From contig CADARP010000012.1 of NCBI GenBank assembly GCA_902790325.1, positions 9,475-73,474 of the forward strand: a stretch of 64,000 nt of DNA. The letters are read 5' to 3'. The notes below the pieces were generated by a model, which saw nothing but the letters and a program-made list of their open reading frames with translations, did no database searches and had not been told where the DNA came from. Source of the stretch: Oscillospiraceae bacterium (lineage in GTDB: Bacteria > Bacillota > Clostridia > Oscillospirales > Acutalibacteraceae). The position numbers and the translations under genes were made by a program. Positions within the stretch are counted from its first letter, which is position 1. Each line of letters begins with the position of its first letter. This document shows, in pieces, positions 19,110 through 64,000 of this stretch.

Positions 19110-20516
19110 TTGAGTCTGTACGATCCTATGAAAAACGTCGTTCCGCCTTCGGAAACGGCACGGCAAAATGAATACGCGGCGCTGGTGCGGACGGTGCTGG
19201 ACGCGCGTTTTTCCGACAAGCCGCGCGCCTTTGTGCACACCTACGGCTGCCAGGGCAACGTGTCCGACGGCGAGCGCATGAAGGGGATGCTGCGCGCGTG
19301 CGGCTTTGTCTTCACCGACACGCCGGACGACGCCGATCTGGTGCTGTACAATACATGCGCCGTGCGCGAGCATGCGCAGGACAGGGTGTTCGGCAACGTA
19401 GGCGCGTTAAAACCCATCAAGAACAAACGCCGCCACATGAAGATCGCGCTGTGCGGGTGCATGGTGCAGCAGCCGCATGTGGCGCAGCGCCTGCGCAGGA
19501 GCTATCCGTTCGTCGACCTGATCTTCGGCACACATGTGACGCACCGCCTTCCGGAGTTTTTGTACCGCCTGTACTGCACGGGCGAAAAGGTCTGCGAGAT
19601 CCCGCAGTCCGACGGCGTGATCGCGGAGAATATCCCCGTCTCGCGCGACAGCAGTTTCAAAGCGTGGGTGCCGATCATGTACGGCTGCAACAACTTCTGC
19701 AGCTACTGCATCGTGCCGTATGTGCGCGGACGCGAGCGAAGCCGCACCGTCGATGCGATCCTCGACGAGGTGCGTTCGGTCGTTGCGGCGGGATACAAAG
19801 AGATTACCCTCCTGGGACAAAACGTCAACTCCTATAAAGGCGAGCTGGACTTCGCGGGACTTCTGCGCGAGATCAACGCCATTCCCGGCGAATTCCTCAT
19901 CCGCTTCATGACCTCGCACCCGAAGGACTGTACGCGCGAGCTGATCGACACGATCGCCGCGTGTGAGAAGGTCGAGCGTCATCTGCACCTGCCGTTCCAG
20001 AGCGGCAGCGACCGTATCCTGCGCGAAATGAACCGGCACTATGACCGCGCGCAGTATCTTTCTTTGGTAAACTACGCGAAACAGACGATCCCCGATCTGC
20101 TGCTGACGAGCGATGTGATCGTCGGCTTTCCGGGCGAGACGGCGCAGGAGTTCGACGAAACGCTCTCGCTCGCGGACGAGGTGGGATTCTCATCGCTGTT
20201 TCTGTTCATCTATTCCCCGCGCGAGGGGACAAAGGCGGCGTCCATGCCGGACGAGACCGACCGTGCGGAAAAGGTGCGGCGGTTCCAGTCGCTCGAAAAA
20301 CTCCAGGCGCAGCACAGCACACGGATCGCCGAAAGTATGGTCGGACGGACATTCCGCGTCCTGTGCGAGGAGGAGAACCGCGAGGGTGTCCTCACAGGCA
20401 AGACGAGCGGCAGCATGCCGGTGGAGTTTCCGGGCGCGGCGGACCGCGTCGGTACGTTTGTCGATGTGCGCATCACCGAGCGCACGGGTTGGACGCTGAA
20501 GGGAGAGATCGTATGA
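19110..20516 (+). CDS. miaB: tRNA (N6-isopentenyl-adenosine37-C2)-methylthiotransferase MiaB
   Basis: TYGCQGNVSDGERM (UPF0004 domain), the radical SAM site MYGCNNFCSYCIVPYVRGRERS, and a TRAM-like C-terminus. The start is assigned to TTG 19110, 7 nt after GAAGGAG. ATG 19128 is the alternative. Confidence 0.85.
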   Translation: MSLYDPMKNVVPPSETARQNEYAALVRTVLDARFSDKPRAFVHTYGCQGNVSDGERMKGMLRACGFVFTDTPDDADLVLYNTCAVREHAQDRVFGNVGALKPIKNKRRHMKIALCGCMVQQPHVAQRLRRSYPFVDLIFGTHVTHRLPEFLYRLYCTGEKVCEIPQSDGVIAENIPVSRDSSFKAWVPIMYGCNNFCSYCIVPYVRGRERSRTVDAILDEVRSVVAAGYKEITLLGQNVNSYKGELDFAGLLREINAIPGEFLIRFMTSHPKDCTRELIDTIAACEKVERHLHLPFQSGSDRILREMNRHYDRAQYLSLVNYAKQTIPDLLLTSDVIVGFPGETAQEFDETLSLADEVGFSSLFLFIYSPREGTKAASMPDETDRAEKVRRFQSLEKLQAQHSTRIAESMVGRTFRVLCEEENREGVLTGKTSGSMPVEFPGAADRVGTFVDVRITERTGWTLKGEIV

Positions 20517-53171: not shown

Positions 53172-53245
53172 GCGGGTGTAGTTCAATGGCAGAATCCCAG
53201 CCTTCCAAGCTGGTTGTGTGGGTTCGATTCCCATCACCCGCTCCA
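53172..53245 (+). tRNA. tRNA-Gly (anticodon UCC), CCA encoded
   Basis: Acceptor stem GCGGGUG/CACCCGC, anticodon stem CCAGC/GCUGG with loop CUUCCAA, T loop UUCGAUU. Confidence 0.9.
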
Positions 53246-53249
53246 TTTT

Positions 53250-53326
53250 GCGCCTGTAGCTCAGCTGGATAGAGCATCTGCCTTCTAAGCAGAGGGCCAG
53301 GGGTTCGAGTCCCTTCAGGCGCGCCA
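53250..53326 (+). tRNA. tRNA-Arg (anticodon UCU), CCA encoded
   Basis: Acceptor stem GCGCCUG/CAGGCGC, D arm AGCUCAGCUGGAUAGAGC, anticodon loop CUUCUAA, T loop UUCGAGU. Confidence 0.9.
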
Positions 53327-53377: not shown

Positions 53378-53437
53378 AAATCGTTGATAAATAAGGGATT
53401 GCGACGAGCCACAGGTTCAAAATGAATACGTTATACG

Positions 53438-53481
53438 GCGCAGAAGAGCACAATTTGAGGCTTTTCTGCGCTGCTTTTTTT
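53438..53481 (+). terminator. Second terminator-like hairpin inside the island junction
   Basis: 11-bp stem gcgcagaagag / cttttctgcgc (one G-T pair) followed by tgcttttttt. There is no obvious upstream gene for it to terminate. Confidence 0.45.
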
Positions 53482-53498
53482 ATGGGCTTTCGGCAAAA

Positions 53499-53545
53499 TT
53501 GCAACCGGTTGCAGGGGGTTGCAGGGGGTTGCAAGGGGGTTGCAT
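53499..53545 (+). repeat. Helically phased direct-repeat array (5 x TTGCA; core GGTTGCAGGGG) beginning with the palindrome TGCAACCGGTTGCA
   Basis: TTGCA occurs at 53499, 53509, 53519, 53529 and 53540 (spacing 10, 10, 10, 11 bp): ttgcaaccgg ttgcaggggg ttgcaggggg ttgcaaggggg ttgca. An AT-rich tract follows, and the array lies 75 nt upstream of the HTH gene. Confidence 0.85.
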
Positions 53546-53619
53546 TTCAAAAAATTTTAAATTTAGGGGGGAAACATTGGCCGTTTTCGTGTCCGTGTAG
53601 TGGAAGGGAGTGTTTTTTC

Positions 53620-54003
53620 GTGACGGAACGAGATAAATCTATCATCCTTGCTATGCGAGAAAACGGCGAATCATATTCGGAAATTGCGAACGCTCTCCGG
53701 ATTCCTGTCGGAACCGTAAAGGCATTATGCAGCCGCGAAAAGAAAACGGACACGAACGCGGGTGTCCTCTGTCTGACCTGTGGCGCACCAATCCCTGCGT
53801 TATCTCACGGGAAAGCGAAGAGGTTCTGCAGTCGACGCTGCTACAACAAGTGGTGGCACGCAAACCATACCGATCGGACGACGTACAACCGCACCTGCCC
53901 GGTCTGCGGTAAGGTGTTCACCGTCCGATCCAATAAGTGTCAGAAGTATTGCTCGGCAGATTGCTATCAGGCGGCGCGAAAGGCAGGCGGCGAACATGAA
54001 TAA
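53620..54003 (+). CDS. Sigma-70 region-4-like HTH protein with a C-terminal double zinc-ribbon (recombinase-module accessory/regulator)
   Basis: GTG at 53620 after GGAAGGGAG. ENGESYSEIANALRIPVGTVKALCSR is the HTH. CLTCG...CSRRCYNKWWH...CPVCG...YCSADCY are the Cys clusters. The upstream part of the track ORF (53422-53619) reads through the repeat array and is rejected. Confidence 0.7.
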   Translation: MTERDKSIILAMRENGESYSEIANALRIPVGTVKALCSREKKTDTNAGVLCLTCGAPIPALSHGKAKRFCSRRCYNKWWHANHTDRTTYNRTCPVCGKVFTVRSNKCQKYCSADCYQAARKAGGEHE

Positions 54004-54212: not shown

Positions 54213-55511
54213 ATGCAAATCAAAAAACTGCCGACACTTCCGACGCTCCAGAAGAAAAAACAGGTTGCCGCATACGCACGTGTGTCAACGGGCAAGGACG
54301 CAATGCTGCACTCTTTGTCGGCGCAGGTCAGCTATTACAGCGCATACATCCAAAAACAGCCGGAATGGCTGTACTGCGGTGTGTATGTGGACGAAGCGAT
54401 CACAGGGACCAAAACGGAACGACCGGAGTTTCAGCGGCTTCTTGCCGACTGCCGTTCCGGAAAGATCGATATGATCATCACAAAGTCCATTTCCCGCTTT
54501 GCGCGAAACACTGTCACACTGCTTGAAACGGTGCGTGAATTAAAGGCACTTGGCATCGACGTATTTTTTGAAGAGCCGAATATTCACACGTTGAGCGCAG
54601 CCGGTGAAATGATGCTGACGATTCTGGCGTCGGTCGCACAGGAAGAGAGCCGTATGACGAGTGAGCGCATGAAATGGCGCGTGCGGAAGAATTTTGAAGA
54701 AGGCGTTCCATGGAATGTGACGATCCTCGGCTACACTCTACGCAACGGGCGCTTTGTAGTCGTACCGGAAGAAGCCGCGGTCGTGCGTCAGATTTTCGAC
54801 CTGTATATGGAGGGAAAAGGCTACGCCGCTATCGCCGACATACTGAACGCGGCTGACGCGAAAACGCGGTACGGACGCACGTGGAACCACACATCCGTGC
54901 GCTGGGTGCTGCGGAACTACGCCTACACCGGAAACCTTCTCCTGCAGACGACATACTCCGAAAACCATATCACGAAGCGCATGCGTCCAAATACGGGCGA
55001 AATGCCCATGTACCACGCGCAAGGTACACACGAGGCGATCATACCGCAAGAACTCTATGATGCCGTACAGCGCGAAATAGAGCGTCGTGACGCGAAGTAT
55101 TCTGACGCCGATAAACGCAGACAGACGCCGCTGGCGGGAAAAGTGTTCTGCGGCATCTGCGGCAAACGCTGTAGACGTAAGAAACGGCATGATAGGCAGG
55201 TGTGGATTTGCAACACGTTCAACGTGCACGGAAAAGACGCCTGTCCTGCAAGAGCAGTACCGGAGGATATTCTGATGCCGCTGGTTGAGGGCATCGACGT
55301 TGAACGAATTGATATTTGTAATAATAATCTGATCCGGATTCAGACAACCGGCGGTGACGTAGTGGAGCGCACATGGGCGCTGACGTCACGCCGCGACAGT
55401 TGGACACCGGAGATGAGAGAGAAAGCGAGGGAAAGAGCCAATGGCAGTTGTAACCAAAATACCAGCGACGAAAAACAAATTCACGTCGGCGTCGGCATCG
55501 CAAACGCATAA
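54213..55511 (+). CDS. Large serine recombinase 1 (resolvase catalytic domain, recombinase domain, zinc ribbon)
   Basis: VAAYARVSTGKD (catalytic Ser), IDMIITKSISRFARNT, recombinase-domain YGRTWNHTSVRWVLRNYAYTG, zinc ribbon CGICGKRC...CNTF...CP. Confidence 0.9.
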   Translation: MQIKKLPTLPTLQKKKQVAAYARVSTGKDAMLHSLSAQVSYYSAYIQKQPEWLYCGVYVDEAITGTKTERPEFQRLLADCRSGKIDMIITKSISRFARNTVTLLETVRELKALGIDVFFEEPNIHTLSAAGEMMLTILASVAQEESRMTSERMKWRVRKNFEEGVPWNVTILGYTLRNGRFVVVPEEAAVVRQIFDLYMEGKGYAAIADILNAADAKTRYGRTWNHTSVRWVLRNYAYTGNLLLQTTYSENHITKRMRPNTGEMPMYHAQGTHEAIIPQELYDAVQREIERRDAKYSDADKRRQTPLAGKVFCGICGKRCRRKKRHDRQVWICNTFNVHGKDACPARAVPEDILMPLVEGIDVERIDICNNNLIRIQTTGGDVVERTWALTSRRDSWTPEMREKARERANGSCNQNTSDEKQIHVGVGIANA

Positions 55512-57021
55512 ACGCCGCGTCGCCGCATACGCCCGTGTATCCACGGATAAGGACGAGCAGCTCACCAGCTATAAGGCGCAGGTGGACTATTACAAAAAAT
55601 ACATTCAGAACAACGATGAGTGGGAATACGTCGATGTGTATGCAGACGAAGGCATCACGGGGACGAGCACGAAAAGCCGTAAGAGATTTAACGAAATGAT
55701 CGCCGACGCGCTTGCCGGAAAGATCGACTTGATTATCACAAAATCGGTTTCCCGTTTCGCTCGGAACACGGTGGACACGCTCGTCAACATCCGCAAGCTG
55801 AAAGATGCCGGTGTCGAGTGTTTTTTTGAAGAACAGGGCATTTGGACGTTCGATAGCACGGGTGAACTGATGATCACTATGCTCTCCTCTATCGCACAGG
55901 AAGAAGCCCGCAATATTTCCGAGAACGTTACATGGGGACACCGTAAGCGGTTTGAGGACGGCAAGATTATGCTGGCGTACAAACGCTTTCTCGGTTATGA
56001 CCGTGGTGAAGATGGTAAGCCGGTCATCAATCCGGAAGAAGCTGAGATTGTACGTCAGATTTACAGATGGTTTATTGAAGGCAAGACGCCGTTCATGATC
56101 TGTAAGGAATTGGAGGCGCTGGGGATTAAAACGCCCGGTGAGAAAGAGAAATGGGGGCGGAGTACGGTTATCAGTATTCTCTCCAATGAAAAATACAAAG
56201 GTGATGCCCTGTTGCAGAAGAGCTTCACGGTGGATTTCCTGACGAAAAAGACCAAAAAGAATGAGGGGGAAGTTCCGCAGTATTACGTCGAGGGCAGCCA
56301 TCCTGCCATTATCAATCCGAAGGAATGGGATTATGTGCAGGCGGAACTTGCCCGCCGCAAAATCATCGGTAAAGCGTACAGTGGTACGAGTGTATTCTCT
56401 TCTCGATTGGTCTGCGCCGACTGCGGTGATTTCTTCGGGCAGAAAGTATGGCACTCCACTGATGCGTACAGAAAAGAGATATGGCGATGCAACCACAAAT
56501 TTGACGGCGATAAGCAATGCAGCACGCCACACCTTGTCGTGGAGCAGATTCAGGCTCTATTTCTGCAGGCGTACAACGAACTGATGCGTGATCGCAGTCA
56601 GGTGATCGCCGACTGTGGAGTTATGCGTGACGCTCTTTTGGATACTACAGACATTCAGAAGCAGATCGCAAAGGTCGATGAGGAGATGGAGATCACCGCA
56701 GCTTTGGTCGCTGCCGCCGTCAAAGAGAACGCAACGTTGCCTCAGTCGCAGGAAGAATACAATGAGAAATATGCTGCGCTTGAGGAACGGTTCTTGGAAC
56801 AGAAAGACAAACGCGCCGCCCTTGAGGCGAAGATCGCAGAACGAAAAGCGAGAGCGCATGAACTGGATTTGTTCACATACGCTCTCGCGGAAAGTGATTT
56901 AATTGTGTCAGAGTGGGATGAACAGTTGTGGTTGACACTGATCGAAAAAGGCACTGTCCTGCCGGAAGGCAGCATCAGTTTTCTGTTCAAAAACGGAACG
57001 GAGATATTGGCGGCAATGTAA
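55441..57021 (+). CDS. Large serine recombinase 2 (with a C-terminal coiled coil)
   Basis: VAAYARVSTDKDEQ, IDLIITKSVSRFARNT, WGRSTVISILSNEKYKGD, zinc ribbon CADCG...CNHKF...C. Its start overlaps recombinase 1 by 71 nt. Confidence 0.9.
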   Translation: MAVVTKIPATKNKFTSASASQTHKRRVAAYARVSTDKDEQLTSYKAQVDYYKKYIQNNDEWEYVDVYADEGITGTSTKSRKRFNEMIADALAGKIDLIITKSVSRFARNTVDTLVNIRKLKDAGVECFFEEQGIWTFDSTGELMITMLSSIAQEEARNISENVTWGHRKRFEDGKIMLAYKRFLGYDRGEDGKPVINPEEAEIVRQIYRWFIEGKTPFMICKELEALGIKTPGEKEKWGRSTVISILSNEKYKGDALLQKSFTVDFLTKKTKKNEGEVPQYYVEGSHPAIINPKEWDYVQAELARRKIIGKAYSGTSVFSSRLVCADCGDFFGQKVWHSTDAYRKEIWRCNHKFDGDKQCSTPHLVVEQIQALFLQAYNELMRDRSQVIADCGVMRDALLDTTDIQKQIAKVDEEMEITAALVAAAVKENATLPQSQEEYNEKYAALEERFLEQKDKRAALEAKIAERKARAHELDLFTYALAESDLIVSEWDEQLWLTLIEKGTVLPEGSISFLFKNGTEILAAM

Positions 57022-57420: not shown

Positions 57421-57852
57421 TCAAGGGTTTGCAGCAACATTCTTCTCATACAAGAATTGTAAATCCTGTAATACGCGCTTCTCCAGTAATTCTTGATCAC
57501 CTCCAGCGGAATTAATAATGTCTCTCAGCTTTTTGAATCCGGACTCAGCACACCGTTCTGCTTCATCGTAATTGATTTCGCGATTTGCATATCGATCGAT
57601 GTCGTCTTTATTTTCTGGGATCCCAAGCAAAATTGAAGCAAACAGTGCAAGGTCATATGATTTAATGTTTTTGAGCAAGAAATACCCGTCTTTTTTTCCT
57701 TTCATTTCTTCTGGTGAGTCTAAACCAAGTGCCGTTGCTAAAAGGAAGATGTCTTTTGCGTCCATCATATGCATCCCAAGTGTATTGTTTTCATTGCACT
57801 CATGAAGCAGACCATCTCGCAGGGAACTATTGATGAAAATTCTATCACGCAT
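57421..57852 (-). CDS. Hypothetical protein, DndE-sized and possibly DndE-like (143 aa from ATG 57852; the track ORF extends to 57960)
   Basis: The ATG at 57852 overlaps the last codons and TGA of the upstream ATPase gene (GATGCGTGA), which suggests translational coupling. It sits directly after a DndD-like gene, as dndE does. KKDGYFLLKNI...LALFASILLG is loosely reminiscent of DndE; this is recollection and needs an HMM check. Confidence 0.45.
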   Translation of the reverse strand: MRDRIFINSSLRDGLLHECNENNTLGMHMMDAKDIFLLATALGLDSPEEMKGKKDGYFLLKNIKSYDLALFASILLGIPENKDDIDRYANREINYDEAERCAESGFKKLRDIINSAGGDQELLEKRVLQDLQFLYEKNVAANP

Positions 57853-59872
57853 CGCCTTTACCAATCCCTTCAATTTGTTCTTCGTTATCAGAGAGTGCAA
57901 TATCTCGAATAGATGCTGCTCTTTCATCGTAAAGACTTTGGACTTCATTGGAGTATTCATCCGGAGTGAAAAGCATAATAATCTGCTTATACCTCGAAAC
58001 CTTTAAGAGTTCCGCAGCCATGTTTGCGCGATTTGAATCGGAAACCCTTCCCAATGGTGAGTCGACAACAAGGGGACAGTTTTTGCCTGATGCATCATGA
58101 ATTGCGAGAGTAAAAGAATATGCCAATGCCATGTATTCTGTAGCACTCAAGGAACCAGTCATCTGATTACCTTGCATATTATATACAGTTAATTCATATT
58201 TGTCGTTGATGTCGATTTTTCCAAAGGTATTCTTTTTCCAAATCATGGCGTTGAAACGTTCCCAAGTCTGACGCTGAATGTCCTCTTTGATCTCATCCAT
58301 AATGGCTTTTTCGACAGCGTCGTACTGTGAATTCAGAGTTCTAAAGGCGACCACTTCCCTCGACAACAGATCTTTCCTTTGCCTCTTTTCCTCAATTTTA
58401 CCTCTCTCCGCTATTTTTGTGGCTAAAGTTTCAGAGAGCCTTTTAATATCACTTTGGTTCAATGCCAGACGTTGTTGCAAAGATACAAGCTCATCGTTTG
58501 CATTTTTGCGTTCTGATTCTATTTTTCGTACGTCAATTCCGCCACTTTCGTCAGAGTATCGAGCTAAAAAAGCGCTTATATCATCGAGAGCCTTTTGTGT
58601 TTCTGCGATGGTTTCGGTATAATAATTATCTCGTTTCACCAGCTTTTTATATTCAGATGGGAACTCTTTGCAGCGGGCGATAATTGTTTCAAGGCCCCCT
58701 TTAATCTCCATCAGAAAATTTGATGTCGCTGAAGAAACATCCAACTCATCTAATAGCTTTTGCAAGTGCTGAATGGCCTTTTCATCAAGTGCGCCGTTGC
58801 AGATAGGACAGAATTTTGCATGATCAGATAGCAGAGATTGAATCTGCTCTTTATCGATATTGGGTGGTAATGTGCCTGCATTTTGCTTTTCGTGAATTAG
58901 GTCTAATGCAAACTTCACGCGCGGATAAAAACTTAGAAGCGTCCAGTATGTAGTAATAAATGCGTTTTTCTCCGCAATAAAGCTTTCATAATCGCTTTGG
59001 AGTTCTTTTAGCTCTTTACTCAAGGCTAACCGTTTTCCGATGTTTAGCCTAATAGGTGCGTATCCTTGCAAAGTTGCGTCTGCATCTGCAATTATACGTC
59101 GTAGTTCAGGCAACCGAGCTTCAATCTCGCTGTTTTGTGCCTTAAGATCGGATATTTTTCCTTCAAGAATGCGGATTTCGTCTGCTAAATCCGGAGCGCT
59201 TTCCTTCCCCAGTTTGGTAGCTTGCCGATACTTTTCATCGGCCATTGTACGCACATGATTGCTGGCGTTCCTCAAAAGCGTAACTTGCGAAATGTTGAAA
59301 ATTGAAGACTTTATCTTTTCGGACTTTTCGCTTGTAAAGTAGCTTTTTAGGTTTTCACCATCAAAGAAGTAGTAGTCATAAATTGCCTCATCGAAGTATT
59401 GCTTAACGATACTTTGAACTTCAGCTTCATCTTCGATAACAACAGAGTTCGCAGCGCTGTCGGTTGGGGTCTTGATTACCTTCAACTTTGACTGCCCTGG
59501 TCGTGCGCTTTTTGCATTGGTCAGGGGACTTTCAATCACGAAGAAAGATTGAGTGCGTTCAAATACTATGATTTCCCCGTCATTGTTCAAGGTCAAGCGG
59601 GCAGTAACGCTAAGCGAGTCTTTTGGATTTGAGCGCTGAACGAGTGCACTGTTAACTATAGGAAGCGCTTTATCTTTGTCACTCAGATAATGCTCTGACG
59701 CATAAAGACACCAGAGAATGCCATTTAGAAAAGTTGTTTTTCCCGTTCCGTTTTTTGCGCGAAGAATGTGCAAATCACAGTCCTCTCCACTTTGGAAGGA
59801 CACATTAACAGACCTGTACTGGCGATAGTTTTCAAATTCAACTTTAGTTATTCTGATCATCACTATCACCAT
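57845..59872 (-). CDS. SMC/Rad50-like ABC ATPase of the DndD type
   Basis: N-terminal IRITKVEFENYRQY, Walker A AKNGTGKTTFLNGILWCLY and FFDGE. A long coiled-coil middle contains CPICNG (hook-like CxxC, residues 355-358). LSATEYMALAYSF is the ABC signature. Walker B/D-loop PLVVDSPLGRVSDSNR is followed by QIIMLFTPDE. The alternative start ATG 59860 gives MIRITKV. Confidence 0.75.
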   Translation of the reverse strand: MVIVMIRITKVEFENYRQYRSVNVSFQSGEDCDLHILRAKNGTGKTTFLNGILWCLYASEHYLSDKDKALPIVNSALVQRSNPKDSLSVTARLTLNNDGEIIVFERTQSFFVIESPLTNAKSARPGQSKLKVIKTPTDSAANSVVIEDEAEVQSIVKQYFDEAIYDYYFFDGENLKSYFTSEKSEKIKSSIFNISQVTLLRNASNHVRTMADEKYRQATKLGKESAPDLADEIRILEGKISDLKAQNSEIEARLPELRRIIADADATLQGYAPIRLNIGKRLALSKELKELQSDYESFIAEKNAFITTYWTLLSFYPRVKFALDLIHEKQNAGTLPPNIDKEQIQSLLSDHAKFCPICNGALDEKAIQHLQKLLDELDVSSATSNFLMEIKGGLETIIARCKEFPSEYKKLVKRDNYYTETIAETQKALDDISAFLARYSDESGGIDVRKIESERKNANDELVSLQQRLALNQSDIKRLSETLATKIAERGKIEEKRQRKDLLSREVVAFRTLNSQYDAVEKAIMDEIKEDIQRQTWERFNAMIWKKNTFGKIDINDKYELTVYNMQGNQMTGSLSATEYMALAYSFTLAIHDASGKNCPLVVDSPLGRVSDSNRANMAAELLKVSRYKQIIMLFTPDEYSNEVQSLYDERAASIRDIALSDNEEQIEGIGKGDA

Positions 59873-60032
59873 CCATTTCCTTTAGGTAATCAATAACCAG
59901 CCGCTCATATGTTTCCTTGAACCTATGATTCCCCTTATCCTCTTCTTCAAGAATGGCGAGCATAAGCATTTTTAGATCTTCCGGCACATCGAGCGCAACA
60001 ATTTTTTCAAATATCTTCTCACTGATAGGCAT
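59844..60032 (-). CDS. Small acidic protein (62 aa), unknown function
   Basis: The ORF overlaps the helicase stop by 14 nt and the ATPase start by 17-29 nt, so it fills the junction exactly. The C-terminus is DGDSDDQNN. No family recognised. Confidence 0.45.
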   Translation of the reverse strand: MPISEKIFEKIVALDVPEDLKMLMLAILEEEDKGNHRFKETYERLVIDYLKEMDGDSDDQNN

Positions 60033-62106
60033 CTTCGCTTACCCCGTTTCTTTTAAAGATTTCAATCACTTCATCTCGGTTTATTGCGTTATCTGCGATT
60101 TGCATTGCGCGACGGAATTCTTTTTGGAGGATCCTAATATCTATTTCACTACCACTGGACGGGCTGACAATTAAATCATAGATGTGAGAAAAGGATTTTC
60201 CTTTGCATGGCCTAATAACCCTACCAACTCTTTGGACGAATTCTCGTGGATTTGTGCTGCTTGCCATCAAAATTGCAATTCTTGCTGTGGTAATATCGAT
60301 TCCTTCGTCCAAACATTTGATTCCTATCAGAACTTGCACACGCCCATTTCTAAACTGATCAATGGCTTCTTGCCGCTCTGTATTGCCATGGACGCCTACT
60401 TTTTTCGAGGCCGATATTTCTTCAGTGATTTTGCAACGTGATATTTCGTGACTACTGAGCATATTCAGTAGAGGGGACACCTGTTTATCTGTTGCAAAAA
60501 TAATTGTGTCTTTGATGCGAGACTCATTATTGAGCTGTAAAACAATCTCTTCAACAGACGCGAGTTTCATTTCTGCATTCTTTAAGATATTAGCTCTTCG
60601 AATCAGGAGCATGTTCAAACGCTCAACGTCAACTTCTTCCGCAGAAGAAACAACGGCAATCTCACGGCTCAACTTCGAATAGTCTCTACACTCTGATTCT
60701 GACAGTTCAACAAAAACAGGATGATAATAGAACGGATTAAGAAACGGCTTTCCGGTTAAAGGATTAATTGTTCCCAACGCGTCTTTAATTGTGAATTCAA
60801 ATGATTGATTGCCGAAATACTCCCGAATAATACTGGTTCCATATTCATCAAACATGCGTTCCGGTGTTGCACTTAATCCAACACGATAGCGGTATATATC
60901 TAATAATGCCTGTTTCTGATGATCTGAGCCAATAGCATGAACTTCGTCGCAGATAAACATAATTTCCGCTTTGCCATGATTCTTGCTGATGATTTCAATA
61001 AAAGCGTTGCTCGAAACCGTATTATGCGTTGTGTATACTATCGCATTTTTATAACGATCTGCGTTAAGATCTAATAAGCATATTTCAAGATCCTTTTTCC
61101 ACCTGGGATTACTCCCGTCGATAATACGCGAACGATCACTTTCAATACCAAGTGATTCGATATCCGTTTGCCACTGCCGTGACAAGGTGTTTTGCGGAGT
61201 CGCAATAATCACGAGAAGCCTCTTGGTATGCGAAAGAAGAGTCAGCATGCATCCAATTGCTGTCCTCGTTTTTCCTGTTCCAGTTGCCATCTCCATGAGG
61301 AGACTACGGTCGTTTTCAAGCCATTTATTCACAGCCTTTTGCTGATGGCTAAATAGCGAAATCTCATTTACTTTTTCTTTTTGTCTATCCCTGTATTTTT
61401 TCATTATTGAGAGATCGCTCACATTGCGTGGCGCCACCTCAATAATCTTGTGTGTTATTGACTCAGGAATGGTATATACAGCTGCAACATCGTCCCTTTC
61501 GCCATTCCAAAACTCATTAAATTTTTTTAAATCAGCAAGCAAATACTCTCTTTGACCAGGTTCCCATGATTTGAACGTTTTGAATTCCTCAATGTTACTT
61601 AACCATGCTTGCGCAGACTCATTGATCGACCCACTGAAAGATATCATGTCTCCATTAGAATCGTAACCAATACCAATCTTTTGGTGGAATAAACTATCTG
61701 ACGAATGTCGGTCAACGACGATTTTAATATCGAGTTTTTTATTTGCCAGTAACCAAGCGAGGGCTTGTAAGTTGTCCAATTGTTTAAATGCTTCTATATC
61801 GAACTGCTGAAAAAAAGAAAGCGCTTCAGGTGCGACATTCGATTGGGATTCTCTTAGAACGCGTGCGTCCTGCTCCGATAACCGTGGAGAAATCAGTAGA
61901 CGCATAAACCCGCCATTTCGTATTAACCCTTCTATCCCTTTTGAAGCGACGGCAAGACTGCTGCTGCTAAAGAATCCTGCAATCCGGAAATATTGCTTCG
62001 TCTGCTCAAGCATCGGAATGTAAAAAGCGTCAAGAAGCTGAGAACGATCGCTGGATGTTTCATAGCTGATTTTTATATCCAGATTTCTGTAACCCATCAT
62101 TGCCAC
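60019..62106 (-). CDS. PLD-family (HKD) nuclease domain fused to an SF2 DEAH-box helicase (ResIII plus Helicase_C)
   Basis: The HKD motif FHQKIGIGYDSNGDMISFSGSINES is at residues 140-164 (nt about 61621-61686). Helicase motif I MATGTGKT (274-281), motif II ICDEVH (385-390), motif III GLSATPER, motif VI QRVGRVIRP. An in-frame ATG at 62100 forms an ATGA overlap with the upstream stop and may be the true start. Confidence 0.85.
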   Translation of the reverse strand: MAMMGYRNLDIKISYETSSDRSQLLDAFYIPMLEQTKQYFRIAGFFSSSSLAVASKGIEGLIRNGGFMRLLISPRLSEQDARVLRESQSNVAPEALSFFQQFDIEAFKQLDNLQALAWLLANKKLDIKIVVDRHSSDSLFHQKIGIGYDSNGDMISFSGSINESAQAWLSNIEEFKTFKSWEPGQREYLLADLKKFNEFWNGERDDVAAVYTIPESITHKIIEVAPRNVSDLSIMKKYRDRQKEKVNEISLFSHQQKAVNKWLENDRSLLMEMATGTGKTRTAIGCMLTLLSHTKRLLVIIATPQNTLSRQWQTDIESLGIESDRSRIIDGSNPRWKKDLEICLLDLNADRYKNAIVYTTHNTVSSNAFIEIISKNHGKAEIMFICDEVHAIGSDHQKQALLDIYRYRVGLSATPERMFDEYGTSIIREYFGNQSFEFTIKDALGTINPLTGKPFLNPFYYHPVFVELSESECRDYSKLSREIAVVSSAEEVDVERLNMLLIRRANILKNAEMKLASVEEIVLQLNNESRIKDTIIFATDKQVSPLLNMLSSHEISRCKITEEISASKKVGVHGNTERQEAIDQFRNGRVQVLIGIKCLDEGIDITTARIAILMASSTNPREFVQRVGRVIRPCKGKSFSHIYDLIVSPSSGSEIDIRILQKEFRRAMQIADNAINRDEVIEIFKRNGVSEDAYQ

Positions 62107-62792
62107 CTTATTTGATCTTTAAGCGGAAGATCCTCAAGTATTAGGTTCATAATAATCTCATTATTATGTTTCCTTCTAATAATCGTTTGCCCAGAAAGTG
62201 CAACTGATACAGTATCAATATAAGACGCATATCCGTTCGTCTTTGCTTCGTAGATTAGTGTTTTAATCAATGGATTTCTTACCGCTAACCGTTTGATTAG
62301 TTCGTGCTTTTCCTCGACAGATAGCATTGTAGACACACTGCCTAATGAAGATATTCGCACCATATTACATTTTCGATCTGGCTCTCGTCCAATAAGAACA
62401 AGAGTGAGCATCGCGGCAGTTTTGGCATGGTTTTCTCCGTATTTGATACATGCATACTGCTGTGATGCGTGTGTTAGCCTTTGACCGGCCTCTTCGTAAG
62501 AAAGCCGATTTTCTTCAAATTCCAAAATGGTGCACAACGTGTCTGTCGCATCATCGAGTTTGCTGTATTGGAAAATATCTTTTGGCGATAACGGATAAGG
62601 ATGGTTGATGGCGTCGAGTAACCTTAAAATAGGAATTGAAAGCAATAACCTTATTGCCTCAACAACATCATCGTTATCACCCACGGTTAGTGTTTCTAAA
62701 GATTCTGGTGAATAGTCGAGATACTGTTGTAAAAAAACATTTTCTTTTTCCGTGTTTCCTGTCGCCAAAAGCCAATCCCTATAAAAGCTCAT
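62097..62792 (-). CDS. Hypothetical protein (231 aa), no recognisable family
   Basis: The ORF is tightly packed between the radical SAM and PLD-helicase genes (19-nt gap upstream, overlapping stop/start downstream). The AT-rich codon usage matches its neighbours. Confidence 0.6.
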   Translation of the reverse strand: MSFYRDWLLATGNTEKENVFLQQYLDYSPESLETLTVGDNDDVVEAIRLLLSIPILRLLDAINHPYPLSPKDIFQYSKLDDATDTLCTILEFEENRLSYEEAGQRLTHASQQYACIKYGENHAKTAAMLTLVLIGREPDRKCNMVRISSLGSVSTMLSVEEKHELIKRLAVRNPLIKTLIYEAKTNGYASYIDTVSVALSGQTIIRRKHNNEIIMNLILEDLPLKDQIRWQ

Positions 62793-62811: not shown

Positions 62812-63987
62812 TTAATCTTTCATATGAAGATCCTGATAATCTTCATATCGCAAATCAAAGTATCTTTCTGCGATTTCTGGGTGCTTTGCCTCAAAATCAA
62901 GCATTGCTTTATATGATGAGCACAGTGTCCCCTCGGTTTTGTGAAGTTTCTGATTTTCTTCGCAAAAACGTCTGAAGCTCATTTTTTTATATATGCTCGG
63001 CTGGTTGCCCCAACGTGCAATGGCAATATACATACCGGCGTATTCGGACTCTTTCCATGGCTTATAGTTTTTGTCTTGATAACGCATGATATAAGGGAGA
63101 CACTGATAATGCATTAACAATTCCAGCCGCTTGAAACAGTTTTCAATGTCAATCGCATCCGTTCCTTCAAAACCAACAAGAACATAAAACTTGATATTCC
63201 GTGCTTTGGAGTATCTTCTGATCATCTCAAGTTTTTGCTTGATCAGTTCATAATCTGCGATATTATCAAATGCGAAAGTATAGTCTCCGTCGTATTTTGC
63301 CGCAAACAGTATTTTACATTTTTCATCTGTTAAAAGTCTCTCGTCGAGCCCTTGCTTGAATTTAAATGGGTACCCAGTATTGATTAACTGCTGAAGTAGT
63401 TCCCTCCAGTTTGGATAGCCGAGAAAATTGTCATCCAATAAGCAAATTGCCCTGCGGTTTCTGTCAAAAAACTCATCAAGGGGACTACTTGGGAAAACAT
63501 GGTCGTATTTTTTGTTTACGCAGAACTCACATTTCCGAAAACATCCGCGAGTTAAGAATCCTATACTATAGTCCGTATACTCTTTGAACTTAACCAGGAA
63601 AGCCTTTCTGTTAAAGGACTCGCCCCTCTCTTGTTCTGCTTTTCTTACTTCACTTTCAATCCATTCATCATACAGAGTATAATCAGGCATGTGGTGTTCG
63701 ATTCTCGGATCGAGGTTGGGTGCTTTGTCAAAAAAGAATCCCGTCCCTCCATAGCTCACTTTATCCCTATCCTCCATATAGTGCTGTATCCATTCAGGAA
63801 CGGGGGTATCTGTAAACACCTTTGAAATATAAATATGATCGTATTCGTGTATATCCACTTGTTGTAAAATTAATGTAACTTCAGCACCTTGCTCCTTCCA
63901 GTATCCAGATATCTTCTCACATATGAGGTTTGGAAAACGGTGCTTTTTTCTGCCTATTAAATCGGCGTCTATGATTCCTATTTTCAT
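62812..63987 (-). CDS. Radical SAM enzyme with an N-terminal roughly 140-aa Rossmann/B12-binding-like domain
   Basis: The canonical 4Fe-4S/SAM motif GFLTRGCFRKCEFCV (C149-x3-C153-x2-C156; nt 63520-63543) follows the N-terminal domain MKIGIIDADL.... The ATG at 63987 has GGGAAGTGA upstream. Only 13 nt of upstream sequence are in the window. Confidence 0.8.
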   Translation of the reverse strand: MKIGIIDADLIGRKKHRFPNLICEKISGYWKEQGAEVTLILQQVDIHEYDHIYISKVFTDTPVPEWIQHYMEDRDKVSYGGTGFFFDKAPNLDPRIEHHMPDYTLYDEWIESEVRKAEQERGESFNRKAFLVKFKEYTDYSIGFLTRGCFRKCEFCVNKKYDHVFPSSPLDEFFDRNRRAICLLDDNFLGYPNWRELLQQLINTGYPFKFKQGLDERLLTDEKCKILFAAKYDGDYTFAFDNIADYELIKQKLEMIRRYSKARNIKFYVLVGFEGTDAIDIENCFKRLELLMHYQCLPYIMRYQDKNYKPWKESEYAGMYIAIARWGNQPSIYKKMSFRRFCEENQKLHKTEGTLCSSYKAMLDFEAKHPEIAERYFDLRYEDYQDLHMKD

Positions 63988-64000
63988 CTGGTCACTTCCC

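Follow-up and report, generated by a model that had tools for sequence, protein, structure and literature searches.

The right-hand end of a 64,000-nucleotide stretch of DNA from an Oscillospiraceae bacterium (contig CADARP010000012.1, positions 9,475 to 73,474 of the forward strand; this whole stretch is called the window below) carries an operon of six genes, all on the minus strand. From first to last they encode a radical S-adenosylmethionine (radical-SAM) enzyme (rSAM), a partner protein of 231 amino acids (p231), PbeA, PbeB, PbeC and PbeD. A preliminary description had picked out the last two genes as a pair resembling DndD and DndE; within the same 6.5 kb it left PbeA, PbeB and the radical-SAM gene at the head of the operon unmentioned. 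We find that this pair is PbeC and PbeD, and that the operon which they close lies on a mobile island of low GC content. The last four genes almost certainly make up a complete PbeABCD-type module, that is, a 'CxC ABC-ATPase / clade-2 DndE' system (ABC, ATP-binding cassette), sister to DndD/DndE: PbeA and a small protein are encoded upstream of the ATPase and a DndE-like protein downstream, all in one operon. The PbeC/PbeD pair taken alone would be routine, and the value of the locus lies in what stands in place of the dnd genes. An operon with a radical-SAM module where the modification genes would stand is a new variant of the Pbe system.

The genes of the operon are translationally coupled, with successive junctions of +19, -1 to -4 (depending on the start chosen for PbeA), -14, -29 and -8 nt. 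The p231 gene starts 19 nt past the rSAM stop codon and its TGA overlaps the ATG of PbeA (TGATG), whilst the open reading frame (ORF) at the PbeB position overlaps the end of PbeA by 14 nt and the start of PbeC by 29 nt. The window ends 13 nt upstream of rSAM; on an identical 80-kb contig, a non-coding gap of 350 nt precedes the gene.

The PbeABCD module

The ATPase, PbeC (57845..59872, minus strand), is 675 residues long, and both it and the small gene overlapping it lie where the preliminary description had placed them, with all of the motifs it named. Walker A (NGTGKTT) is found at residues 41-47, FFDGE at 169-173, Walker B with the D-loop (PLVVDSPLGRVS) at 600-611 and LFTPDE at 634-639. 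A CPIC motif at 355-358 sits in the middle of a coiled coil of about 400 residues, between Walker A and the signature/Walker B region (576-611). Among 18 orthologues of the ATPase, the Walker A, signature and Walker B motifs and the CxxC are invariant or nearly so, the CxxC itself being invariant, and full-length matches in hidden Markov model searches extend down to E = 2e-82, far past chance.

In PADLOC the ATPase matched more than 20 separate PbeC models, the PbeC model PDLC02723 scoring 275.7 bits over ATPase residues 6-634 and profile positions 1-618 of 618. DndD was the second-best family at 111.8 bits, followed by LmuB at 85.4 bits. In the PADLOC and NCBIfam searches together there were also minor matches to ASRP (72.6 bits), Rad50 (31 bits) and PtuA (21.1 bits). 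The earlier ranking of the protein as closer to DndD than to other coiled-coil ATPases therefore holds, since DndD outscores LmuB, PtuA, RecF and Rad50. The identification as DndD itself does not. Comparison of profile scores with non-Dnd families had been named as a check, and PbeC beats DndD 2.5-fold. TIGR03185 gives the ATPase 96.3 bits, far under the 245.85 that NCBIfam sets as its curated cutoff. Controls in the same search came from a Halorubrum trapanicum plasmid that carries dndCDEA-pbeABCD, the canonical arrangement that we inspected: its DndD scored 519.8 bits and its PbeC 35.6 bits.

The CPIC motif had been listed as a hallmark of DndD, and here the literature points the other way. 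A Cys-containing hook at the coiled coil's apex defines the CxC clade of ABC ATPases (PbeC), whose sister DndD has no hook (PMC10853773), and the motif therefore sets the ATPase apart from DndD. A real DndD has no cysteines in the region aligned to the hook of the ATPase, which, to judge from its sequence, has the Cys-containing hook motif of the CxC clade at its coiled-coil apex. The ATPase is thus PbeC, a relative of DndD but no DndD. In pairwise BLASTP comparisons with two haloarchaeal proteins encoded on one plasmid (L089 2003-4030 and 7912-9837), the ATPase aligned end to end with DndD (82 bits, 21% identity), and with PbeC at the N-terminus only (43 bits). The CxC/PbeC clade is evidently very heterogeneous.

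The small protein PbeD (57421..57852, minus strand) is read from an ATG at 57852 to an end at 57421, its start overlapping the ATPase stop codon (57845-57847) by 8 nt. An alternative reading from 57960 would give 179 residues; because 27 homologues all begin at or near 'MRDR', 143 residues is the real length. Public gene calls disagree on identical sequence, giving 115 residues on one contig (L001 12911-13258) and 143 on two others. In the AlphaFold2 (AF2) model (predicted local distance difference test score, pLDDT, 87; predicted template modelling score, pTM, 0.82), a first unit of strand S1a (4-8) and helices H1a (9-22) and H2a (32-42) is followed by a linker of 11 residues and a second unit, in which strand S1b (54-59) and helix H1b (65-76) lead through a 14-residue loop into an H2b of 26 residues (91-116). 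A helix of 21 residues (120-140) closes the chain. Clade-2 DndE proteins, the partners of CxC ATPases, are described as two tandem ribbon-helix-helix units with a linker of 10-20 residues, an H2b that is elongated and a C-terminal helix no shorter than 19 residues (PMC10853773), and the predicted topology of PbeD has all of these features.

Direct similarity to DndE is another matter. DndE chains (4lrv, 5wtu, 7x4e) accounted for 10 of the 44 Foldseek hits to the PbeD model, none of them significant (E = 2-6, prob at most 0.30, template modelling (TM) scores 0.41-0.61). No DndE match was found with a PbeD profile against the PDB or in Pfam scans of 28 family members. Alignment with hhalign to two real DndE proteins and one haloarchaeal PbeD was non-significant as well. 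From so shallow an alignment (effective number of sequences, Neff, 2.3), these sequence-level results are uninformative rather than negative. The proposal of a DndE-type protein thus survives at the level of predicted clade-2 topology, beside Foldseek hits that recur but are weak.

Upstream of the ATPase, PbeA (60019..62100, minus strand) is a fusion of an HKD (PLD-family) nuclease with a superfamily 2 (SF2; DExH) helicase. The choice of start codon (ATG at 62100 or 62097, GTG at 62106) makes it 692-695 residues long. PADLOC PbeA matches at 653 bits over profile positions 3-668 of 672, Pfam assigns the domains ResIII, Helicase_C and DEAD, and the match to TIGR04095, 'DNA phosphorothioation system restriction enzyme', stays at 337 bits, under that model's cutoff of 600. 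A set of 25 orthologues conserves the HxK...D...GSxNE motif, motif I (GTGKT) and the DExH of motif II, which reads DEVH in the window. Between PbeA and PbeC, the acidic 62-residue protein at the PbeB position (59844..60032, minus strand) is assigned by its position and size. It has no match in PADLOC, NCBIfam or Pfam and no similarity to haloarchaeal PbeB, and homologues of 50-65 residues occupy the same position in 14 loci. The absence of matches fits the rapid evolution of the small protein, PbeB having been called a 'rapidly evolving small protein' (PMC10853773).

The preliminary description had also remarked that no dndA, dndC or iscS lies nearby, and this is borne out. Among ORFs of at least 180 residues in the 64-kb window there is no SGGKDS (PP-loop) and no SGSAC (cysteine desulfurase) motif, and the 6.7 kb past the window's end, read from the identical 80-kb contig, likewise hold no PP-loop or desulfurase motif, so that dndC or iscS just beyond position 64000 is disposed of too. 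What does not stand is the view that such an absence is anomalous. In a survey of 553 PbeAC pairs, 320 (58%) were without dndCD and 42% had dndCD within 10 kb (PMC6459918, Xiong et al. 2019). Solitary Pbe modules have been suggested to pair with modifications other than phosphorothioation (PMC6459918; PMC10853773), and CxC systems with cytosine methyltransferases and no phosphorothioation genes have been reported (PMC10853773). A Pbe module without dnd genes is therefore already known and, as such, ordinary.

It could still be supposed that the two genes are a phosphorothioation pair, DndD with DndE, which lost or never had DndA and DndC and is either inactive or served by the housekeeping IscS with some other sulfurtransferase. 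We consider this very improbable. The second rank of DndD among the families matched, the end-to-end alignment with a real DndD and the DndE-like topology of the small protein lend it some colour, but the ATPase falls far short of both the TIGR03185 cutoff and the positive control, scores 2.5-fold higher with PbeC models than with DndD, and bears a CxxC hook that DndD lacks (PMC10853773); PbeA and PbeB adjoin the pair, and no PP-loop enzyme is encoded in 71 kb. Still less credible, to the point of dismissal, is an ATPase of Lamassu (LmuB), Gabija/OLD, PtuA or generic SMC/Rad50 type unrelated to Dnd and Pbe: the full-length or N-terminal matches to LmuB, ASRP, Rad50 and PtuA are weak and lie far under PbeC, no LmuA, PtuB or GajB partner is present in the operon, and the CxxC hook on its long coiled coil is flanked by genes for PbeA, PbeB and PbeD. 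By score, Lamassu, PtuA, Rad50 and RecF are ruled out.

The radical-SAM enzyme and its partner across loci

The first gene of the operon (62812..63987, minus strand) encodes a protein of 391 residues that is a radical-SAM enzyme without a curated family. Across 39 diverse homologues its CxxxCxxC motif (C149/C153/C156) hardly varies and holds the only conserved cysteines. In the AF2 model (pLDDT 95) a flavodoxin/Rossmann-like domain at the N-terminus is followed by a radical-SAM barrel, and the C-terminal region (317-389) is all-helical. The nearest structures in Foldseek were MiaB and RimO (E = 1e-7 to 5e-5, prob 1.0), followed by SuiB and lipoyl synthase (LipA), with prob 0.97-1.0 across these folds. 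At the sequence level the protein matches phrog_9298, 'radical SAM domain protein', with E = 4e-50, and lies below all Pfam and NCBIfam thresholds, PF04055 giving 11.5 against 29.5 bits. The family is large: one search returned 5813 hits, and another gave 1769 clusters at 50% identity.

The enzyme has neither the auxiliary-cluster cysteines nor the TRAM domain, and a role as methylthiotransferase or sulfur inserter was rejected on these grounds; nor does the sequence significantly match that of MiaB/RimO (TIGR01578, 12.5 bits; cutoff 314.7). A cobalamin-dependent class B methylase is conceivable but unsupported, there being no cobalamin-binding radical-SAM structure among the top Foldseek hits. 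Some homologues carry an intein-like insertion directly before the motif TRGCxRxCxFC (for example protein P0266), and the record of the archaeal plasmid LC711081.1 (H28) is annotated to that effect. Inteins are usually found where a replication- or phage-associated gene encodes an essential catalytic site. Elsewhere in the window, in its host part, the motif CNNFCSYC, which MiaB/RimO-type radical-SAM enzymes typically have, occurs in a 500-residue ORF at 19686 (plus strand), probably a housekeeping methylthiotransferase unrelated to the island.

The second gene, p231 (62097..62792, minus strand), encodes a protein with a variable N-terminal half and a C-terminal half in which KYGENxxK and STxxRRxxN are invariant. 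No match was found in Pfam, NCBIfam, PADLOC, PHROG or the PDB; Pfam searches of 27 members at E up to 10 returned stray hits only (DUF7226 in 3, E = 0.035), and a profile against the PDB returned one match at chance level. The protein is, however, homologous to the C-terminal 250 or so residues of fused rSAM proteins of 626-688 residues. Such fusions are found in 7 Pbe-type loci and also in P0215, P0223 and P0233.

For a view of the neighbourhood we took the 80 best-scoring of 449 loci, picked by rSAM similarity alone and ignoring neighbours. The order rSAM-p231-PbeA-(B)-C-D was present in 27 of the 80, with p231 separate or fused in 26 of them. In 7 loci, all with p231, the pair was accompanied by a GmrSD_N protein of about 675 residues with SspE/BrxU architecture. 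Another 11 had rSAM with a cassette of ParB-like protein, 136-residue protein, SNF2 helicase (ZorD/DpdE-like), ParB-like protein and p231, the last being present in 10. Phage or prophage loci numbered 20 and other loci 14, with p231 in 1 of each group, and in 1 locus the rSAM gene was not called and p231 was not scored.

Pbe-type loci were found in Clostridia, Negativicutes (Dialister, Phascolarctobacterium, Anaerovibrio), Bacilli, Mollicutes-like groups, Verrucomicrobiota and Lentisphaerae, and the six-gene order is kept even where PbeC identity has fallen to 27-47%. These observations make it very probable that rSAM-p231 belongs functionally to the Pbe module. At the same time, the closeness of rSAM does not track the partner module. 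Enzymes 68-71% identical to that of the window serve GmrSD-like and ParB-SNF2 modules, whereas in locus L052, where PbeC is the most similar of all and PbeA one of the two most similar, the rSAM is only 49% identical. Mix-and-match of this kind is typical of modification and restriction modules.

No methyltransferase, PP-loop or cysteine-desulfurase motif was found within 10 kb on either side in 28 Pbe-type loci (the 27 above and the window-identical contig), and the same motif patterns detect methyltransferases in 10 of the 20 phage-type loci. The phage and prophage homologues of rSAM (phrog_9298, about 50% identity; for example L084 6001-7125, from Oscillospiraceae phage NatCom_21982, and L041-L077) are encoded between genes for HNH, ParB-fused N6/N4 methyltransferase and C5 methyltransferase proteins and the large terminase. 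Genes protecting phage DNA commonly lie in this region, upstream of the terminase and among methyltransferase genes. Some phage-type loci also have a PAPS-reductase-like PP-loop gene.

In three Dialister loci (L036 6729-9986, L037 and L040), a protein of about 1100 residues with a sigma-factor-like helix-turn-helix (HTH) is encoded directly upstream of rSAM. On a Ruegeria dnd plasmid (L088 10583-13663), the gene directly upstream of a PbeA-like restriction enzyme, which there adjoins dndBCDE-A, encodes a 'sigma factor-like HTH DNA-binding protein' about 1026 residues long. Such a sigma-factor-like HTH protein may recur as one more partner of PbeA-type enzymes.

A possible self mark and its alternatives

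The radical-SAM gene is the real candidate for the 'missing' modification enzyme. From the gene identities, the operon, the synteny, the fusions and the modular re-use, all of them observed directly, we infer that DNA may be its substrate and the product a self mark. Taken as a whole, the proposal that the locus is a Pbe-type module in which rSAM-p231 marks the cell's own DNA is one towards which we lean; that the pair marks DNA at all has, by itself, about an even chance. In favour of a marker, no alternative marker motif lies near the 28 Pbe-type loci, the same pair accompanies three kinds of restriction module, the phage homologues of rSAM lie among methyltransferase genes, and both groups that worked on Pbe suggested modifications other than phosphorothioation for solitary modules (PMC6459918; PMC10853773).

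A mechanism can be sketched. Following the family-level literature, a dimer of PbeC with the DNA-binding PbeD would load on DNA and scan it, PbeA with its helicase and HKD nuclease would act as the effector against unmarked DNA, either translocating and cleaving or blocking replication, and PbeB would be a small regulator that restrains the system. The gene context suggests that rSAM could place a covalent mark on host DNA, which would exempt that DNA from PbeABCD, with p231 as a putative DNA-targeting or adaptor subunit; phages might use rSAM to the same end, to protect their own DNA. By analogy with the Dnd system, a stronger version would have the PbeC-PbeD scanning pair serve both the writer and PbeA, as DndD-DndE serves DndC. 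Rather more tentatively, with chances that we put a little short of even, rSAM-p231 may be the writer of an undescribed, radical-made DNA mark for at least three interchangeable restriction modules, and phages may have captured rSAM without p231 as a disguise.

Several points weigh against the marking proposal. The proposed link of the rSAM family to DNA is drawn from gene context. Its nearest structures, MiaB and RimO, act on tRNA and protein, and the similarity to them is mostly architectural (TM 0.45-0.48). Sequence searches found no recognisable DNA-binding domain in p231, and the phage homologues that do without p231 need explaining if p231 is the target-recognition subunit. The frequencies given above come from the best-scoring 80 of 449 loci and are no unbiased census, the motif screen for methyltransferases is crude, and dnd genes may be present elsewhere in a genome of which about 71 kb are visible.

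The alternative that survives best is a solitary PbeABCD that either has no mark of its own or relies on one encoded elsewhere, by dnd genes or a methyltransferase, leaving rSAM-p231 as a sensor, regulator or 'reader'. Many PbeAC pairs have no dndCD nearby (58%, as above), not all of them have a methyltransferase (PMC6459918), and a mode of abortive infection that needs no self mark has been proposed (PMC10853773). An adaptor or reader would also suit a p231 that occurs only in cellular defence contexts and, one of the 20 phage or prophage loci apart, is absent from phages, and the limited view of the genome leaves room for a distant mark. Nevertheless, a radical-SAM catalyst kept at 60-84% identity over many genomes would be odd for a pure sensor, the same pair works alongside three unrelated restriction modules, the phage copies of rSAM sit with methyltransferases, and none of the 28 loci has another modification gene within 10 kb on either side. 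We regard this alternative as unlikely, if well short of negligible.

It is distinctly less probable that rSAM is itself an effector, one that either makes a nucleotide analogue against viruses, in the manner of prokaryotic viperins, or damages invading DNA directly, with PbeABCD as a co-operating second arm. Radical-SAM defence effectors are established (the prokaryotic viperins, pVips, and the recently reported Ophion OpnA) and rSAM is the first gene of a defence operon, yet the protein resembles none of the viperin-type families of PADLOC and NCBIfam, its homologues are common in phages beside DNA-protecting methyltransferases, and its two-domain, MiaB-like architecture suggests a macromolecular substrate.

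If rSAM does modify DNA, as the marking proposal holds, a radical-SAM-made mark would join methylation, phosphorothioation and 7-deazaguanine among the few epigenetic self-marks of prokaryotes. It would also account for a family that counts over 1700 protein clusters and is common among gut Bacillota and the phages that infect them. How 'solitary' Pbe modules tell self from non-self has been a question since 2019, and the operon gives it a concrete candidate. In the full-text-searchable literature we found no description of radical SAM linked to Pbe/CxC, GmrSD-like or ParB-SNF2 modules, although a mention in the 2020 classification of ABC ATPases is possible; the two key Pbe papers name radical SAM only in connection with DndC (PMC6459918; PMC10853773).

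The island and comparison with known systems

The mobile island begins right after two tRNA genes, tRNA-Gly(TCC) and tRNA-Arg(TCT), located with ARAGORN at 53172-53326 on the plus strand, and the operon lies at its low-GC end, where the GC content, about 60% in the host, has stepped down through 50% to 38-43%. On the plus strand between the tRNAs and the operon are genes for an HTH/Zn-ribbon protein of 193 residues (53422-54003) and two overlapping large serine recombinases of 432 (54213-55511) and 526 residues (55441-57021), both with the Pfam domains Resolvase, Recombinase and Zn_ribbon_recom as read from identical contigs. A SHOCT-like small ORF is also part of the island. The same arrangement is found on three metagenome contigs. 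Past the right end of the window, the identical 80-kb contig encodes a Fic-like protein of 1011 residues (L001 1421-5155, upstream of the operon, with a weak Fic-domain match), a 144-residue SRAP-domain protein and small ORFs; the Fic-like and SRAP proteins may be further defence or toxin cargo.

Among described systems, the closest relative of the window's module is DndCDEA-PbeABCD of Haloterrigena/Natrinema jeotgali A29 (PMC6459918), which has the same four-gene cassette in the same order and corresponds to the 'CxC ABC-ATPase - DndE' systems of PMC10853773. Both have an HKD nuclease with SF2 helicase, a protein of about 60 residues, a coiled-coil ATPase of about 650 residues that bears a Cys hook, and a DndE-like protein about 150 residues long, encoded by overlapping genes. 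Unlike the A29 type, the operon of the window has no adjacent dndCDEA and carries genes for a radical-SAM enzyme and a 231-residue protein at its head. Similarity to haloarchaeal Pbe proteins is low, PbeC aligning at the N-terminus only and PbeB not at all, and the host is a gut-type, 60%-GC, Bacillota-like bacterium rather than a haloarchaeon. The marks on which canonical Pbe depends are phosphorothioates, the work of DndCDEA, and antiviral activity dependent on host DNA modification has been shown for one haloarchaeal system only (PMC6459918).

The DndD and DndE proteins of DndABCDE (TIGR03185/TIGR03184) have the same proposed role in scanning DNA. Unlike them, the ATPase of the window falls below the DndD cutoff and has a Cys hook, and its small partner is predicted to have the long loops and long C-terminal helix of clade 2; DndA, DndB and DndC are absent. 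In SspABCD-SspE, SspE reads a mark on host DNA, and in 7 related loci a single DUF262/GmrSD_N protein of about 675 residues comes after rSAM-p231 and shares the SspE architecture, as in GmrSD/BrxU. In these GmrSD-type loci, which lie outside the window, rSAM-p231 takes the place of SspABCD as the putative modification genes. MiaB and RimO, the best structural matches of rSAM, share its N-terminal flavodoxin-like domain followed by a radical-SAM barrel and act on macromolecules. In contrast to these enzymes, rSAM lacks the three auxiliary-cluster cysteines of the N-terminal UPF0004 domain and ends in a helical region instead of a TRAM barrel.

The solitary and methyltransferase-linked Pbe/CxC systems, exemplified by the Halococcus dombrowskii plasmid that we inspected and by Figure 4A-iv of PMC10853773, likewise have Pbe without phosphorothioation genes, and the described solitary variants are presumed to be paired with another DNA modification. 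Whereas the described variants carry C5 or N4 cytosine methyltransferases together with MTaX1, the variant in the window carries a radical-SAM enzyme instead.

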